This document shows positions 2,554 to 54,071 of a stretch of 64,000 nt of DNA, in pieces (the stretch's first letter is position 1; each line of letters opens with the position of its first letter). The notes below the pieces were generated by a model. The model had not been told where the DNA came from. It did no database searches and worked only from the letters and a program-made list of their open reading frames with translations. The DNA lies in the NCBI RefSeq assembly GCF_044324785.1, contig NZ_CP172127.1. One strand, written 5' to 3'. Position numbers and translations under genes: made by a program. The DNA is from Escherichia coli (GTDB taxonomy: Bacteria > Pseudomonadota > Gammaproteobacteria > Enterobacterales > Enterobacteriaceae).

Positions 2554-3954
2554 ATGGATAAGAAGCAAGTAACGGATTTAAGGTCGGAACTACTCGATTC
2601 ACGTTTTGGTGCGAAGTCTATTTCCACTATCGCAGAATCAAAACGTTTTCCGCTGCACGAAATGCGCGATGATGTCGCATTCCAGATTATCAATGACGAA
2701 TTATATCTTGATGGCAACGCTCGTCAGAACCTGGCCACTTTCTGCCAGACCTGGGACGACGAAAATGTCCATAAGTTGATGGATTTATCCATTAACAAAA
2801 ACTGGATCGACAAAGAAGAATATCCGCAATCTGCAGCCATCGACCTGCGTTGCGTAAACATGGTTGCCGATCTGTGGCATGCGCCTGCACCGAAAAATGG
2901 TCAGGCCGTTGGCACCAACACCATTGGTTCTTCCGAGGCCTGTATGCTCGGCGGGATGGCGATGAAATGGCGTTGGCGCAAGCGTATGGAAGCCGCAGGT
3001 AAGCCGACCAACAAACCAAACCTGGTGTGCGGTCCGGTACAAATCTGCTGGCATAAATTCGCCCGCTACTGGGATGTGGAGCTGCGTGAGATCCCTATGC
3101 GCCCCGGTCAGTTGTTTATGGACCCGAAACGCATGATTGAAGCCTGCGACGAAAACACCATCGGCGTGGTGCCGACTTTTGGCGTGACCTACACCGGTAA
3201 CTATGAGTTCCCGCAGCCGCTGCACGATGCGCTGGATAAATTCCAGGCCGACACCGGTATCGACATCGACATGCACATCGACGCCGCCAGCGGTGGCTTC
3301 CTGGCACCGTTCGTCGCCCCGGATATCGTCTGGGACTTCCGCCTGCCGCGTGTGAAATCGATCAGTGCTTCAGGCCATAAATTCGGTCTGGCTCCGCTGG
3401 GCTGCGGCTGGGTTATCTGGCGTGATGAAGAAGCGCTGCCGCAGGAACTGGTGTTCAACGTTGACTATCTCGGTGGTCAGATTGGGACTTTCGCCATCAA
3501 CTTCTCCCGCCCGGCGGGTCAAGTGATTGCACAGTACTATGAATTCCTGCGCCTTGGTCGTGAAGGCTATACCAAAGTACAGAACGCTTCCTACCAGGTC
3601 GCTGCCTATCTGGCGGATGAAATCGCCAAACTGGGGCCGTATGAGTTCATCTGTACTGGTCGCCCGGACGAAGGCATTCCGGCGGTTTGCTTCAAACTGA
3701 AAGAGGGTGAAGATCCGGGATACACCCTCTACGACCTCTCTGAACGTCTGCGTCTGCGCGGCTGGCAGGTTCCGGCCTTCACTCTCGGCGGTGAAGCCAC
3801 CGACATCGTGGTGATGCGCATTATGTGTCGTCGCGGCTTCGAAATGGACTTTGCTGAACTGTTGCTGGAAGACTACAAAGCCTCCCTGAAATATCTCAGC
3901 GATCACCCGAAACTGCAGGGTATTGCCCAGCAGAACAGCTTTAAACATACCTGA
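2554..3954 (+). CDS. gadB: Glutamate decarboxylase beta (PLP-dependent), 466 aa
   Basis: Translation from [21 protein letters not shown]... matches GadB end to end; SD TAAGGAG 7 bp upstream; the track ORF begins at an upstream in-frame ATG (2485) that I regard as non-native. Confidence 0.95.
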
Positions 3955-12128: not shown

Positions 12129-13679
12129 ATGAAGAGATCGATATCGTTTCGTCCTACATTGCTCGCGATCGTCCTTGCCACAACAATGCCGGTTGCGCAC
12201 GCCGCCGTACCGAAAGATATGCTGGTGATCGGTAAAGCTGCCGACCCACAAACCCTCGACCCAGCGGTGACAATTGATAATAACGACTGGACAGTGACCT
12301 ACCCGTCTTATCAGCGACTGGTTCAGTACAAAACGGACGGTGATAAAGGCTCAACAGACGTTGAAGGCGATCTGGCAAGTAGCTGGAAAGCGTCTGACGA
12401 TCAAAAAGAGTGGACGTTCACCCTGAAGGACAATGCTAAATTTGCCGATGGCACACCTGTCACTGCCGAAGCAGTAAAACTCTCTTTTGAGCGGTTACTA
12501 AAAATCGGCCAGGGGCCAGCAGAAGCATTTCCCAAAGATTTAAAGATTGATGCTCCCGACGAACATACGGTGAAGTTTACCCTTAGCCAGCCATTCGCAC
12601 CGTTCCTCTATACGCTGGCGAATGACGGTGCATCCATTATCAATCCGGCGGTCTTAAAGGAACATGCAGCGGATGATGCTCGCGGCTTCCTCGCGCAAAA
12701 TACCGCAGGTTCCGGACCATTTATGCTGAAAAGCTGGCAAAAAGGTCAGCAATTAGTTCTGGTGCCAAATCCGCATTACCCCGGCAATAAACCGAACTTT
12801 AAGCGAGTATCGGTAAAAATTATCGGTGAAAGTGCCTCCCGTCGCCTGCAGCTCTCCCGTGGTGATATTGACATTGCCGATGCGCTGCCAGTGGATCAAC
12901 TCAACGCCCTGAAGCAGGAAAACAAAGTCAATGTGGCAGAGTATCCGTCACTGCGCGTCACCTATCTGTATCTGAATAACAGCAAAGCGCCACTTAATCA
13001 GGCGGATCTGCGTCGGGCCATTTCCTGGTCTACCGATTATCAGGGTATGGTTAACGGCATTCTGAGTGGTAACGGAAAACAAATGCGCGGCCCGATTCCG
13101 GAAGGCATGTGGGGATACGATGCGACGGCAATGCAATACAACCATGACGAAACGAAAGCCAAAGCCGAATGGGATAAAGTGACGAGCAAACCCACCAGCC
13201 TGACGTTTCTCTATTCTGATAATGATCCGAACTGGGAGCCTATTGCTCTGGCGACACAATCCAGCCTCAACAAGCTGGGCATCAATGTGAAGCTGGAAAA
13301 ACTGGCGAACGCCACCATGCGCGACAGAGTGGGTAAAGGTGATTACGACATTGCGATTGGCAACTGGAGTCCGGATTTTGCCGACCCGTATATGTTTATG
13401 AATTACTGGTTTGAGTCAGACAAAAAAGGTCTGCCGGGTAACCGCTCGTTCTATGAAAACAGTGAGGTCGATAAGTTACTGCGCAATGCGCTAGCGACCA
13501 CCGACCAGACGCAGCGTACCCGGGACTACCAGCAGGCACAGAAAATCGTCATTGATGACGCTGCTTATGTGTACCTGTTCCAGAAAAACTACCAACTGGC
13601 GATGAACAAAGAGGTGAAAGGCTTTGTGTTCAATCCCATGCTGGAACAGGTCTTCAATATCAATACCATGAGTAAATAA
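12129..13679 (+). CDS. ddpA: Periplasmic D,D-dipeptide-binding protein of ABC transporter, 516 aa
   Basis: Starts MKRSISFRPTLLAIVLATTMPVAHA (Sec signal peptide); family-5 solute-binding protein; the track ORF starts further upstream at an alternative codon overlapping ddpX, which I regard as non-native. Confidence 0.9.
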   Translation: MKRSISFRPTLLAIVLATTMPVAHAAVPKDMLVIGKAADPQTLDPAVTIDNNDWTVTYPSYQRLVQYKTDGDKGSTDVEGDLASSWKASDDQKEWTFTLKDNAKFADGTPVTAEAVKLSFERLLKIGQGPAEAFPKDLKIDAPDEHTVKFTLSQPFAPFLYTLANDGASIINPAVLKEHAADDARGFLAQNTAGSGPFMLKSWQKGQQLVLVPNPHYPGNKPNFKRVSVKIIGESASRRLQLSRGDIDIADALPVDQLNALKQENKVNVAEYPSLRVTYLYLNNSKAPLNQADLRRAISWSTDYQGMVNGILSGNGKQMRGPIPEGMWGYDATAMQYNHDETKAKAEWDKVTSKPTSLTFLYSDNDPNWEPIALATQSSLNKLGINVKLEKLANATMRDRVGKGDYDIAIGNWSPDFADPYMFMNYWFESDKKGLPGNRSFYENSEVDKLLRNALATTDQTQRTRDYQQAQKIVIDDAAYVYLFQKNYQLAMNKEVKGFVFNPMLEQVFNINTMSK

Positions 13680-48250: not shown

Positions 48251-48359
48251 AACCGTTGCCTGGTGCGCTTCTCTTATCAGGTCTACAACCGAGCTAACGT
48301 ATGCCGGATAAGGCGTTTGAACTGCACCCCAAATGTTGGACATAATCTGACATCTGAAG

Positions 48360-48890
48360 GTGCAGTTTATGAAACATTCATTTGAAGTAAAACTTGCCGC
48401 TGTAAATCATTACCTGGCTGGTCATGCAGGCATCATTTCTACGGCAAAACTCTTTCAACTTTCTCACACCAGCCTCTCACACTGGATTAATCTTTTTCTT
48501 CTTCACGGTCCTCGGGCACTGGATTGCAGACACAAGCGTAGCTATTCTCCTGAAGATAAACTTTGCGTGGTTCTTTATGCTCTCGGGCATTCTGAGTCTC
48601 TACCCCGGGTAGCTGCCCGGTTTAACATTCCCAGCCACAACACGGTTAAAAACTGGATAAAAGGCTACCGCAAATCTGGTAATGAGGCCTTTATCAGGCG
48701 CAGGAAGGAGAAAAGCATGACCCGTTCTGATGATACCCATGAAAACGAGGCAAACATGACGCCGGAAGAGATGAAGAATGAGCTGCGTTATCTTCGCGCA
48801 GAAAATGCATATCTGAAAGCCATGCAGGAGCATCTCCTGGAAAAAAAGCGCCAGGAGCTGGAGAAAAAACGAAAGTCATCCGGAGCCTGA
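48360..48890 (+). CDS. IS3-family transposase OrfA (HTH), 176 aa
   Basis: HTH/leucine-zipper OrfA; slippery heptamer A-AAA-AAG at about 48842..48848, in frame. Confidence 0.85.
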   Translation: MQFMKHSFEVKLAAVNHYLAGHAGIISTAKLFQLSHTSLSHWINLFLLHGPRALDCRHKRSYSPEDKLCVVLYALGHSESLPRVAARFNIPSHNTVKNWIKGYRKSGNEAFIRRRKEKSMTRSDDTHENEANMTPEEMKNELRYLRAENAYLKAMQEHLLEKKRQELEKKRKSSGA

Positions 48891-48994
48891 GGTGCGGACA
48901 CTGCCAGTCTGACCTGTTAAAGGCTGCAGGGCTGGCCAGAAGCACGCTGTACTACCAGCTGTCACTGCAGAAGGCTAAGGACAAGTATGCTGAT

Positions 48995-49749
<755 letters not shown>

Positions 49750-49780
49750 GTTTACGCCGCATCCGGCAACCTGACATAAA

Positions 49781-50626
49781 TTATTTTCCCGCCTCCGGGT
49801 GCGTATCAAACGCCGCCATCACCAGCGCTAACTCATCCACGGTAAAGCCATGTTTCGCATCATCCACCCCCAGACCAAACTGTTCCTGCATCACGGCATA
49901 TAACGACGCCACATCTGGTAGATTTCGCTGCTCCACCGCGTGCCCATTTTCATAATGGGTAAAATGAAAATTGGTCAGTGTCAGCTTGCCGCCGTCCGGC
50001 AAATGGCGGCACATCAGCAAATGATGGCGAAAATGCGACTGCGGCCAGTGCGCAGACCAGAAATTGCCCATTACATAATCGCTTTGTTGCTGCTCGCAGA
50101 GATCAAAACGGTACATCGACTGCCAGTGCTGATGATGATTAAACTGCAACACCCAATCATCACCCGCCTGTAACAACCGATACTCTCCGTGTGGCGTGAT
50201 CTGCACGAGATCGGGAACTAAACGAATCGGCGCGGTTAGCGTCTGTCCACCGAAACCGACATCAGCAATCCATTTTTCCCCTTCCAGTTCCACCAACAAC
50301 AAACGATGGGTGCGCGGCGGTAATGCTGGCGGATTTGATAACACTACGCGCCCTAACAAGCTGCGAACGTTAAACCCCAGCTCGCGTAACACCCGCTCAA
50401 ACACGCCATTCTGCTCAAAACAGTAACCGCCACGACGGGCTATCACCAGTTTCTCTTCCAGCGATTGATCATCAAGCTGTATTTCCCTCGGCAGCAAAAC
50501 GTCGAGATTTTCAAACGGAATGGTGCAATTGTGTTTCAGGTGCAATGCACGCAGCGTATCAATATTGGCCGCAGCAGCTCCCGACCAGTTAATACGGGCA
50601 AAATAATGATTCAGAATGGGCGTCAT
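49781..50626 (-). CDS. nhoA: N-hydroxyarylamine O-acetyltransferase, 281 aa
   Basis: Matches NhoA (arylamine N-acetyltransferase family). Confidence 0.9.
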   Translation of the reverse strand: MTPILNHYFARINWSGAAAANIDTLRALHLKHNCTIPFENLDVLLPREIQLDDQSLEEKLVIARRGGYCFEQNGVFERVLRELGFNVRSLLGRVVLSNPPALPPRTHRLLLVELEGEKWIADVGFGGQTLTAPIRLVPDLVQITPHGEYRLLQAGDDWVLQFNHHQHWQSMYRFDLCEQQQSDYVMGNFWSAHWPQSHFRHHLLMCRHLPDGGKLTLTNFHFTHYENGHAVEQRNLPDVASLYAVMQEQFGLGVDDAKHGFTVDELALVMAAFDTHPEAGK

Positions 50627-50798
50627 CAGGCGTTTCCCTTAGTGGTTTTCTCAACTTATAACCTGGAATAGACGCCGCACCGGCTATTTTGTGCGATCGC
50701 GGACATGCATCACGTTTGCAAATCGCCAATCCCGTTAATTTCGTTACTTATTGCGTTACGGGCTACGCTTAAAAAAACCTTCTTCGCGAGGCGATACC

Positions 50799-51368
50799 AT
50801 GAGCCGATTTATCCCCGTCGAATTACACCATGCCAGCCGTCTGTTAAATCATGGCCCAACTATTTTGATAACAACTTTTGATGAAAAATCACAGCGACGT
50901 AATGTGATGGCTGCGGCCTGGTCGATGCCGGTAGAGTTTGAACCGCCACGTGTTGCGATCGTGGTAGATAAATCGACATGGACCAGGGAGTTGATTGAAC
51001 GTAACGGTAAATTTGGCATCGTTATCCCGGGCGTTGCAGCAACTAACTGGACGTGGGCGGTGGGAAGTGTGTCGGGGCGTGATGAAGATAAGTTTAATTG
51101 CTATGGTATTCCGGTTGTGAAAGGTCCGGTACTTGGTTTGCCTCTGGTCGAGGAAAAATGTCTGGCGTGGATGGAGTGTCGCCTGCTACCTGCGACTTCT
51201 GCGCAAGAAAAATACGACACACTGTTTGGCGAGGTAGTATCAGCAGCGGCAGACGCACGGGTATTTGTCGAAGGCCGCTGGCAGTTTGATGATGATAAAC
51301 TCAATACACTACATCATTTAGGTGCTGGCACGTTTGTTACCAGCGGCAAGCGAGTCACCGCGGGCTAA
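50799..51368 (+). CDS. yddH: Flavin reductase-like protein, 189 aa
   Basis: MSRFIPVELHHASRLLNHGPTILITT...; internal ATG of track ORF 50751..51368. Confidence 0.8.
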   Translation: MSRFIPVELHHASRLLNHGPTILITTFDEKSQRRNVMAAAWSMPVEFEPPRVAIVVDKSTWTRELIERNGKFGIVIPGVAATNWTWAVGSVSGRDEDKFNCYGIPVVKGPVLGLPLVEEKCLAWMECRLLPATSAQEKYDTLFGEVVSAAADARVFVEGRWQFDDDKLNTLHHLGAGTFVTSGKRVTAG

Positions 51369-51997
51369 AGAATCATATGCAGCAACCAAGTTGCTTAAGC
51401 AATGTTTCAATATGAGTTAAAAGCATATTTTATCTCACGATTGCATATTTTTAGTGAAGATTAATTTATCCTCACCAACATCATAGTAATTGCGTATTAT
51501 AGCTTCATTGATAAAGCCCTGTTTTGTATAAAATGCGCGGGTGGCACTAAAATCGATATGGCTGGAAGTCTCTACTAAAAGTAGTCTTGCGTGATTGGGA
51601 CAGGTCAAGAAAAAGCAGTTTTGCAGTTTTTTATTTTAGGGCACAGTTGCGAAAATTGAATCCCTTATGGACTAATGTGAGAAAATCCCGAGGTATGACT
51701 GTTTTGATATAGTGGACAATCAAGCGTCTCGAATTAACAATGAATTTCAGGTGCCAAGCCTTACAATTTGTAGCATGACGGATATAGGACAACATTAGGA
51801 AATCGGACAGAAAATTCATCATAATAAAATGACAACTTATCTCTTTCTCTCACTTTCTGAGAAATTTCACAAAAGTATAAACTGAGCCAATATGCCTTTA
51901 TATATAAAAAATACTCATGTTTATTATTATCGGAAAAAGCCAAGATTTGATTAAGGTGTATTAGTCGCGACTTGATCTGACACTGAGCCCTGAAAGG

Positions 51998-52243
51998 TTG
52001 AGAGTTACCGGTTTTGATATGGGTGTCGAATCCTTATACAAAACACGGGTAACTCTCATGCTTCATACTACCAATCCCGTTATCAAACACAAAGCCAGTT
52101 TGCTCAATCTGGCTGAAGAACTCAGCAACGTATCAAAAGCCTGTAAAATCATGGGCGTTTCGCGTGATACGTTTTATCGTTACCGCGAACTGGCCGATGA
52201 AGGCAGGGAAAGATTACGAAAGCCCGCTCCCTGCAAGGACTGA
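51998..52243 (+). pseudogene. Transposase N-terminal HTH fragment (IS remnant), truncated at the H-repeat element
   Basis: Short ORF with a transposase-like HTH (KACKIMGVSRDTFYRYRELADEG) ending where the H-repeat gene ends; no catalytic domain follows. Confidence 0.4.
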
Positions 52244-53350
52244 CGCCAGGTAGTTTCTGTCCATGGCTGCTTTTCGCATCTTACGTCTTAACCCTGCCTT
52301 GAATACCTTATCATTCGTTAAAATATTAATAGCGATGTGCCGTATCCCTGAAAATAATTCTGCTGCATTTCCTCTTCTTATTTTGCAGTCGTCTTCATTC
52401 ATTACCACGTCCAGACGCCAGTGCAGCTTATTCTCCACGTGCCAGTGATTTCGGATCGCTGTGGCGAACTTCTCAGCGGTTAAATCAGCAGAACTGATGT
52501 AATATCTGACCGTCATTTCTGGCTCTTTCTTTTGTTCTGCTATTATGGACCGAAAGGAGACTGCCACGCATAATTTCTTCAGTCCTTTCCATTCAAACGT
52601 GAAATCAATAAGTTCATCAGGGACATCGCAAACAATATGAAGACGGATTTCTTCTCTGCCTTGACTTTTTTCACTAATTGCGTAACTGTCATGCTCTGGA
52701 TTATTTAATTCTTTCAGTGGGAATTTTTCCTCAAAGGCTTTATTAAGCCGCCCCTGATTTCCTTTTACAGCGAATAAATAATCACCGCCCTGTTTTTGTA
52801 TCTTCTCTGCGATATCTTTCTGGCAACCCATCGCATCAGTTGTGATAATTTTTCCTTTAATATCCAGCATGTTAAGAAGTTCAGGGATAGCTGTGATCTC
52901 ATTGGATTTCTTATCCGTCCTGATCTGTCCGATGACAAGACTGTGCATTGTTGAGAACGCACTAATGACATGAATCGCTCCCCTGCGGCGACTCTTGTCA
53001 TAAGAATGCCGGAGCGTTTTTCCATCAATTGCAATAACGTCTTTATCATCTGAAGAATGGCAGTCACGCATCCCGTTAATAAAGCACTCGTGAAATTTTA
53101 CAGGACTGATACAGGATACAACTCTGGCAATGGTATCGTGAACAGGAATACCATTTTCAAAATCACCATATTGCTTCAAAAAATCGAGATGTGTTTCCCC
53201 AAAATCCTCTATATCTTCCCAGCATTCTGCACCAGAAATAACGGCACAAATAGTCAACAGTAGAATATCCGACAATTTATGTTCCACTTTCTAGGCTTGT
53301 CTGTAATCGGGGATAATAGAAATATGTTCCATCAATTTTTTCAGTTCCAT
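52214..53350 (-). pseudogene. H-repeat-associated (ISAs1-family) transposase gene with an in-frame amber codon at codon 20
   Basis: Track ORF 52214..53287 matches the YhhI/YdcC-type H-rpt protein from [21 protein letters not shown]...; the in-frame sequence upstream reads [29 protein letters not shown] (ATG at 53348..53350, TAG at 53291..53293, where intact homologs have TGG). Confidence 0.75.
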
Positions 53351-53630
53351 TTTGTTCTCCTTAATTATGTAAGGAGTATTTGATCATGTATACGCAATAA
53401 AAAACAGCTTTAGGTAATAAGGAATATCTCAATTTTTAAACATAAAATGCGAATTATTTAGTACAAAAAGTGAACTTCTGATGATCTTTCCCTGCCCATT
53501 GGGTTCATTAAGATCAAGAATAATGGGAATATGCTCAAGAAGACTTTGAATGTTCACCAGACGTCCTTTTCTAATATATTTAATTATTTGGCGATTAAAT
53601 TTTAATCAAATCAACAAGGTAAAACCAAGA

Positions 53631-53660
53631 TTAAAGTTGTGATGATAATCACAACTTTAA
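53631..53660. repeat. Perfect 13-bp-arm inverted repeat (TTAAAGTTGTGAT-GATA-ATCACAACTTTAA)
   Basis: Perfect palindrome in the AT-rich spacer between the H-repeat element and the rhs-associated immunity ORF. Confidence 0.5.
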
Positions 53661-53696
53661 TGATCTTCCCCTGATTCCTCCAGTCCTTTTATTTGG

Positions 53697-54071
53697 TTAC
53701 TCTAATGGTTTTATTAATTGTAAATTTTTAAATGTCATGCTTAATAAGCCATCAGAAAAATAAAGAAAAAATTTATATATCCTTTTGTTTTTTAATTTCT
53801 TTATATACCCATTACTTATATTACCTGACTTGTGATTATCGATTAACTCAGCAGAATCCATAGCGAACACTAAATCATCTACATCAGAAAATTCAACTAT
53901 CATTTTTTCCCTAATGTTCTCATTTTTATAAATGTCAATAAATAACGTCATGTTAAAATGAGATTCTTTGAATGTCGTTTTTACTTCTAACAAAACCCCA
54001 TCATGCCAGTCAATTGAACTCACAATGTCAAAATCGCTCATTATATAATCTCCATTATCCGTTTTAATCAT
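53697..54071 (-). CDS. Candidate immunity protein for the downstream Rhs C-terminal domain, ~124 aa
   Basis: Small low-GC ORF starting at or just after the stop of the rhs C-terminal domain; no signal peptide; alternative start at 54041. Confidence 0.55.

Follow-up and report, generated by a model that had tools for sequence, protein, structure and literature searches.

In this Escherichia coli genome, an H-rpt transposase gene interrupted by an amber codon abuts a truncated fragment of another transposase gene, and the locus raises two connected questions: whether the H-rpt copy is still capable of movement, and which of the two elements arrived at the locus before the other. We analysed the surrounding 64-kb stretch of DNA (hereafter, the window), in which an earlier sequence-only reading had noted a probably inactive H-rpt element, suggested to be inserted into an older insertion sequence (IS) remnant.

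The ISEc1 element and its Rhs locus

The transposase gene (52214..53350, minus strand; 379 codons counting both stops) is the equivalent of K-12 ydcC by its translation, Pfam and NCBIfam matches and RefSeq annotation. With codon 20 repaired, its product matched the NCBIfam model of ISAs1 family transposases (NF033564) with 400.7 bits (cutoff 70), and the Pfam domains PF13808 (DDE_Tnp_1_assoc, 2.8e-31) and PF01609 (DDE_Tnp_1, 3.7e-30), which bears out the assignment of the gene to H-rpt and the ISAs1 family in the sequence-only reading. In RefSeq, close copies bear the name “ISAs1-like element ISEc1 family transposase”. The gene is contained in a complete ISEc1 element of 1291 bp (52204..53494, minus strand), the limits of which are given by exact homology breaks against independent copies. 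Homology breaks at the same nucleotides (52204 and 53494) in SC418, SCU-171, 2014C-3338 and K-12 (ydcC); each of these copies is 1291 bp long and 96.4–98.8% identical to the window copy, and those of SCU-171 and 2014C-3338 are located at the yafV locus. The right terminal inverted repeat (CAGGGAAAGAT..., 52204..52214), at the 3′ end of the transposase gene, is the perfect 11-bp complement of the left terminal inverted repeat (...ATCTTTCCCTG, 53484..53494), and both repeats are identical to those of all copies compared. The last base of the right terminus is the terminal C of CAGGGAAAG. No further ISEc1 copies or fragments were found in the window; the genome of strain N3 (NZ_CP031609.1) contains five ISEc1-like places.

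The window ISEc1 has no target-site duplication, as its flanks (...GATGAAGG and CCCATTGG...) do not match, and the copies of strain 1190 and K-12 likewise have none. This absence fits a rearranged junction and is no argument against family membership. The closest relative of the window copy, an intact ISEc1 in SC418 that differs from it at 15 of 1291 bp (about 99% identity), is flanked by a clean 10-bp target-site duplication (ACCTGACTGC), which shows that simple insertions by the family have occurred in nature. Transposition of H-rpt has never been observed experimentally (PMC3032704); its comparative traces consist of one copy with a duplication and of multiple insertion sites. At the yafV locus of SCU-171, extra partial ISEc1 ends bracket the ISEc1 copy (L005, 1480..1500 and 2792..2817), with ACGAAAGCCCGCTCCC located before the right end and GATCTTTCCCTGA 12 bp past the left end, an arrangement that suggests repeated insertion into, or beside, earlier ISEc1 ends.

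The locus corresponds to that of RhsE/ydcC in K-12, with ISEc1 located between yddH and an Rhs toxin tip; the neighbours on one side are yddH, nhoA, yddE and the nitrate reductase Z genes (narZ operon). ISEc1 lies downstream of the Rhs core and C-terminal tip and of a small open reading frame (ORF), as expected of an H-rpt that belongs to an Rhs element. The Rhs C-terminal fragment (54068..56089, minus strand) matches the Pfam families RHS, RHS_repeat and Tox-WTIP, the last of which is its toxin domain, and the small ORF downstream of it (53697..54104, minus strand) encodes 135 residues. The Rhs region is 94% identical to K-12 rhsE and is annotated in N3 as “RHS element core protein”. Synteny with the RhsE locus and the adjoining Rhs C-terminal toxin thus uphold the description of ISEc1 as the classic H-rpt component of an Rhs element. 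The 135-residue ORF next to the Tox-WTIP ORF is possibly its immunity protein. In N3, two consecutive Rhs core genes (54068..58242 and beyond; L001, 10169..17801) are annotated as pseudogenes, with frameshifts or internal stops. The region 51403..51956, which separates yddH from the IS elements, takes the place of K-12 pptA and contains the truncated 3′ part of a gene for a 211-residue hypothetical protein that is intact in E. coli 042 (L010, 2482..3117); the short ORF at 51435..51608 has no Pfam match. The arrangement with pptA and this region are thus alternative alleles.

On the 5′ side of the transposase gene, ISEc1 is followed by a stretch (53495..53673, minus strand) that, judged by eye, is probably the left end of a second, older ISAs1-like element. 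This stretch ends in an inverted-repeat-like sequence (ATGATCTTCCCCTG, 53660..53673) that matches the ISEc1 left inverted repeat at 13 of 14 positions. An ORF start (MNIQSLLEHIPIILD) at 53557, 116 nt inside the inverted-repeat-like sequence, resembles the N-terminus of H-rpt; its 42-residue ORF has no Pfam match. The remnant is common to 1190 and about 356 genomes. The search for a full-length relative yielded none, only syntenic copies and one ~73%-similar stretch, located in ECNB21-M121 (L009, ~2960..3125) beside an ISEc1-like element of an unrelated T6SS/M23-peptidase locus, and the association of the remnant with ISEc1 appears to recur at different loci. Between the IS remnant and the small ORF (53697..54104), a perfect inverted repeat of 14 bp that encloses a 4-nt loop (ATTAAAGTTGTGAT/ATCACAACTTTAAT, 53630..53661) and is followed on the minus strand by a T-rich run looks like a terminator; a promoter and terminator scan gave no more hits than shuffled sequence did.

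Among 5,426 complete genomes, N3 alone is 100% identical to the window over 51900..53700. The identity extends, with 0 differences, over 51318..54087, and the two sequences diverge by 1.5–4% to the left of 51317 (57 differences in 49750..51317). Homology to K-12 extends only as far as 51402, where yddH has its 3′ end. The interval ~51317..51402 thus looks like a recombination boundary, and the IS/Rhs block like one shared between otherwise different strains. On the identical N3 sequence, RefSeq (PGAP) annotates ydcC (AXA56_RS16805) as a pseudogene, “ISAs1 family transposase, internal stop”, and AXA56_RS16800 as an incomplete “helix-turn-helix domain-containing protein” missing its C-terminus. 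Elsewhere in the window, a ~1.46-kb insertion between yddE and nhoA (48286..49749) is absent from N3 and 1190; its two ORFs, with HTH_28/HTH_Tnp_1 and rve/rve_2/HTH_21 matches, have the usual IS3-family layout.

The amber codon and the state of the transposase

Translation of the minus strand from 53350 to 52214 gave one internal stop, at codon 20, and the normal stop at the end. The internal stop is the amber codon that had been noticed from the sequence (TAG, 53291..53293, minus strand; CTA on the plus strand). Codon 20 is TGG in all intact copies compared, namely the syntenic copy of 1190 and those of SC418, SCU-171, 2014C-3338 and K-12 (ydcC), and the proposed change of TGG to TAG was thereby confirmed against five of five intact E. 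coli copies. A 75-nt query around codon 20 matched at 13,392 places, spread over 4,766 genomes, and was matched exactly only in N3, one of the 5,426 complete E. coli genomes; thus, the amber mutation is private to the N3-type lineage. A single-base difference that is present in so few genomes could reflect an error of sequencing or assembly. However, the same TAG is found in the window and in the independently assembled N3 genome, which differ elsewhere, and six further private substitutions are present in the same gene. The occurrence of the codon in two independent assemblies argues that it is not a sequencing artefact, and we regard the probability of an error as negligible.

The tryptophan that the sequence-only reading expected at this position is a feature of intact proteins of the ISEc1 clade, not of the family at large. 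In an alignment of 126 full-length homologs, obtained by a search of 1.84 billion cluster representatives, position 20 is occupied by R in 61 sequences, G in 14 and W in 8, with H also present, and family-wide conservation of Trp20 was rejected. The stop at codon 20 still matters, because two near-invariant residues, D15 (123/126) and R17 (126/126), are located just upstream of it. The N-terminus with the D15/R17 region is present in all 126 homologs, and hence none of them begins at an internal methionine. In the window copy, there is no Met23 from which translation could restart; the first in-frame start past the stop is GTG at Val22. Reinitiation has no other nearby candidate than this codon (53285..53287, minus strand), which lies 3 nt past the TAG and begins an ORF of 357 codons (53287..52214); K-12 ydcC has ATG at codon 22. 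Direct reading of the sequence upstream of GTG22 revealed no Shine-Dalgarno-like motif.

Comparison with all five intact copies identified seven coding-region substitutions private to the window/N3 copy: one nonsense (W20*), five missense (G43C, A84V, W93G, E147K and H230Q) and one synonymous (at L3). The resulting 6:1 ratio of nonsynonymous to synonymous changes differs from that of the remaining differences from the syntenic copy, which comprise 7 nonsynonymous and 35 synonymous changes (Fisher p = 7e-4). Two of the missense changes, W93G (TGG to GGG, 53072..53074, minus strand) and H230Q (CAC to CAA, 52661..52663, minus strand), affect residues that are Trp in 118 and His in 115 of the 126 homologs, respectively; 2 conserved positions among 5, against about 0.8 expected, are not statistically compelling alone. 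The simplest reading of these changes is that the transposase is a pseudogene that evolves without constraint, and repair of the amber codon by itself might be insufficient to restore activity.

Read-through of the amber codon, or reinitiation at GTG22, could in principle keep the transposase functional and the copy alive. The long ORF opened by the GTG speaks for this possibility, as do the candidate catalytic residues D109, D172 and E306, which are intact in the window copy, and the NCBIfam ISAs1 model, which begins only at residue 29 and leaves the lost N-terminus outside the curated core. However, the restart product would lack both D15 and R17, no start beyond this motif is seen among the 126 homologs, and the GTG is not preceded by a Shine-Dalgarno-like motif. 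In addition, W93G and H230Q fall on positions conserved in >90% of homologs, and the private nonsynonymous excess indicates lost constraint. We therefore consider a functional transposase very unlikely. Probable inactivity, as put forward in the sequence-only reading, thus stands in so far as the gene is decaying and carries an internal stop, and the restart codon named there is replaced by GTG22. Ribosomes would yield a 19-residue peptide from the gene, and any product from GTG22 would, besides lacking the two near-invariant N-terminal residues, carry two damaged conserved ones. We infer that the window ISEc1 is a non-autonomous, decaying element that would be movable only with transposase supplied in trans by another ISEc1 copy; such mobilisation is conceivable because both inverted repeats are intact.

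The IS481-family fragment and the order of events at the junction

The 81-residue ORF that meets the transposase gene (51998..52243, plus strand) encodes a transposase-type helix-turn-helix (HTH), as had been noted, with Pfam matches to HTH_29, HTH_23 and HTH_28. The ORF is a chimera of 20 codons of 5′ UTR, 49 genuine codons and 12 codons of ISEc1 antisense, and it overlaps the stop codon region of the transposase gene by 30 nt because it reads these 12 codons into the ISEc1 antisense strand. Its genuine part belongs to the 5′ remnant of an IS481-family element (51957..52203, plus strand), which retains about 247 of 1201 bp: the left inverted repeat, the 5′ UTR and codons 1–49 of the transposase (HTH only; 52058..52204, plus strand, with the start ATG at 52058), 48 of which are identical in the intact protein. 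The reference for this assignment is an intact element in CFSAN018748 (L003, 2511..3711; 1201 bp), which has 26-nt inverted repeats and a 7-bp duplication (ATTAAGG), and the left end of which is 98.8% identical to 51947..52204. Its transposase (WP_107236064.1) matches NCBIfam NF033577 with 290.9 bits (cutoff 224). Base 52204 can be assigned to either ISEc1 or the IS481 fragment. Homology ends at codon 49 (nt ~247), and no more IS481 sequence was found within 51300..54200. The fragment, which has neither the DDE (rve-type) catalytic domain nor the right inverted repeat, is a remnant and not an element.

The native target of the IS481-family insertion, ATTAAGG, is located at 51950..51956 (plus strand), and the empty site in E. 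coli 042 (L010, ~2671..2677) reads ...TTGATTAAGG, followed directly by CCATC.... The element stands after the same heptamer, within TTGATTAAGG, at two unrelated loci (window, 51950..51956; L003, 2504..2510 and 3712..3718 as the 7-bp duplication), which suggests target-site specificity. An Rfam scan of 51300..54200 gave only a sub-threshold match, to psRNA2 (RF02349; 51868..52055, minus strand; 49.7 bits, gathering score 65, E = 3e-10), which covers the 5′ end of IS481. Where the alignment is good, this match runs antisense to the 5′ UTR and the left repeat of the IS481-family element, and the intact element gives the same match (L003, 2453..2610); the psRNA2 family may be partly derived from IS481-type ends.

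At the junction, the ISEc1 3′ terminus is joined to the IS481 fragment to the nucleotide, and no IS481 DNA is present beyond 53494, on the far side of ISEc1. In 042, the empty IS481 target is followed by 54 bp (CCATC...CAATA) and then by 1.4 kb more native DNA before the ISEc1 right end; in 1190, the flank is the same and is likewise followed by these 54 bp, which run straight into the ISEc1 terminus. The Rhs-side ISEc1 junction is identical in the window and in 1190, which is without IS481. The flank/IS481 junction occurs in 1 of 5,426 genomes (N3 only), and the 1190-type arrangement in about 125. The absence of a duplication and of a second IS481 half, together with the presence of the Rhs-side junction in IS481-free strains, implies that IS481 arrived after ISEc1. 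The joint best explanation, to which we assign a probability of roughly 0.8, is that a complete, dead ISEc1 copy is joined to an IS481-family element that arrived later and was then truncated by a deletion reaching the ISEc1 terminus.

The proposed order begins with ISEc1, which would have been resident first at the locus. Next, in the N3-type lineage, the IS481-family element would have entered at ATTAAGG, leaving 54 bp between itself and the right end of ISEc1, and ~1.0 kb would then have been lost, comprising (i) ~954 bp of IS481, (ii) the second ATTAAGG (7 bp) and (iii) the 54 bp, with the deletion end-point falling exactly on the terminal nucleotide of ISEc1. The difference between 042 and 1190 would represent another deletion, of 1.4 kb, with the same end-point. 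Most likely, the mechanism was adjacent deletion mediated by the ISEc1 transposase, that is, intramolecular transposition of the right end; it is favoured because the deletion that separates 1190 from 042 ends at the same ISEc1 terminus. This mechanism is drawn from the precision of the end-points in three genomes, of which 042 also differs on the Rhs side and is not a proven ancestor, and it assumes that an ISAs1-family transposase can make adjacent deletions. No intermediate genome with an intact IS481 at this site was found among the 5,426.

The sequence-only reading had it the other way around, with nested insertion into an older IS remnant; on this view, ISEc1 would have transposed into an IS481-type element and the HTH fragment would be one of the two halves. 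A junction that is exact at the ISEc1 terminal nucleotide is indeed what an insertion produces, and ISEc1 is capable of simple insertion with a 10-bp duplication, as in SC418. However, no IS481 sequence is duplicated or present beyond the left end of ISEc1, where the flank (CCCATTGGGTTC...) is the same as in the IS481-free 1190, and the flank/IS481 junction is restricted to a single genome whereas the ISEc1/Rhs-side arrangement is found in about 125. These observations contradict nested insertion as a single-step event, and simple nested insertion of ISEc1 into IS481 was rejected on the missing duplication, the missing far half and the shared Rhs-side junction; the IS481 fragment is the younger of the two, and splitting of an older element is highly improbable. 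A two-step route, in which a second ISEc1 hopped into IS481 in the same orientation and recombination between the direct copies deleted one of them and the ~1 kb between, predicts the observed junction exactly and without a duplication. It would also fit the greater similarity of the window copy to the non-syntenic SC418 copy (about 99%) than to the syntenic copies of 1190 and K-12 (96.4%). However, the flanks are also 2–6% diverged from 1190, so that 96.4% is not anomalous, and the differences from SC418 are not clustered as in a chimera; a search along ISEc1 for the chimeric pattern expected of recombination between copies showed nothing clear. This route needs two events where one suffices, and no tandem intermediate was found among the 5,426 genomes. 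We consider it unlikely, and prefer a single deletion ending on the terminus of the resident ISEc1.

Significance and comparison with known systems

The object in the window is of a known kind, an H-rpt/ISEc1 copy in an Rhs element, and has little importance beyond correct annotation; its transposase gene and the neighbouring HTH fragment are both already annotated as pseudogenes in RefSeq (N3). A modest added value lies in the order of events, in which insertion of IS481 at ATTAAGG would be followed by a deletion ending on the ISEc1 terminus. At this locus, the ISEc1 right terminus is abutted by 1.4 kb of native DNA in 042, by a 54-bp stub in 1190 and by the truncated IS481 in the window and N3, and none of these arrangements has a target duplication. 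Several deletions that share the ISEc1 anchor constitute indirect evidence of past enzymatic activity of H-rpt in natural E. coli. More tentatively, and at odds that we place somewhat below even, the H-rpt transposase may be, or may recently have been, active, reshaping the margins of Rhs toxin loci by catalysing one-ended adjacent deletions. If so, the series of junctions would be a natural record of H-rpt transposase activity in E. coli.

Among the known copies, the ydcC pseudogene of N3 and the adjoining AXA56_RS16800 are the same as their window counterparts throughout the block 51318..54087; the neighbouring core genes of N3 and of the window strain differ, and N3 has no IS3-family insertion at 48286..49749. 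K-12 ydcC shares with the window copy the locus (yddH/nhoA to rhsE), the 1291-bp length, the termini, the orientation, 96.4% identity and the lack of a target-site duplication. By contrast, the K-12 gene, with TGG at codon 20, is intact and has pptA beside it in place of the IS481 fragment, and its Rhs side carries the yncI pseudogene where the window has the ~180-bp ISAs1-like remnant. The IS481-family element of CFSAN018748 agrees with the window fragment in the left inverted repeat, the 5′ UTR, codons 1–49 and the ATTAAGG target, whereas the fragment keeps only about 247 of 1201 bp and has lost the DDE domain and the right inverted repeat.

IS-mediated adjacent deletions are classically described for IS1 and other elements. 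Like them, the window locus exhibits an end-point on an IS terminus, no duplication and nested deletions with the same anchor. Unlike for IS1, adjacent deletion is not known to have been demonstrated for ISEc1 or H-rpt. Even transposition of H-rpt is described as unobserved (PMC3032704).
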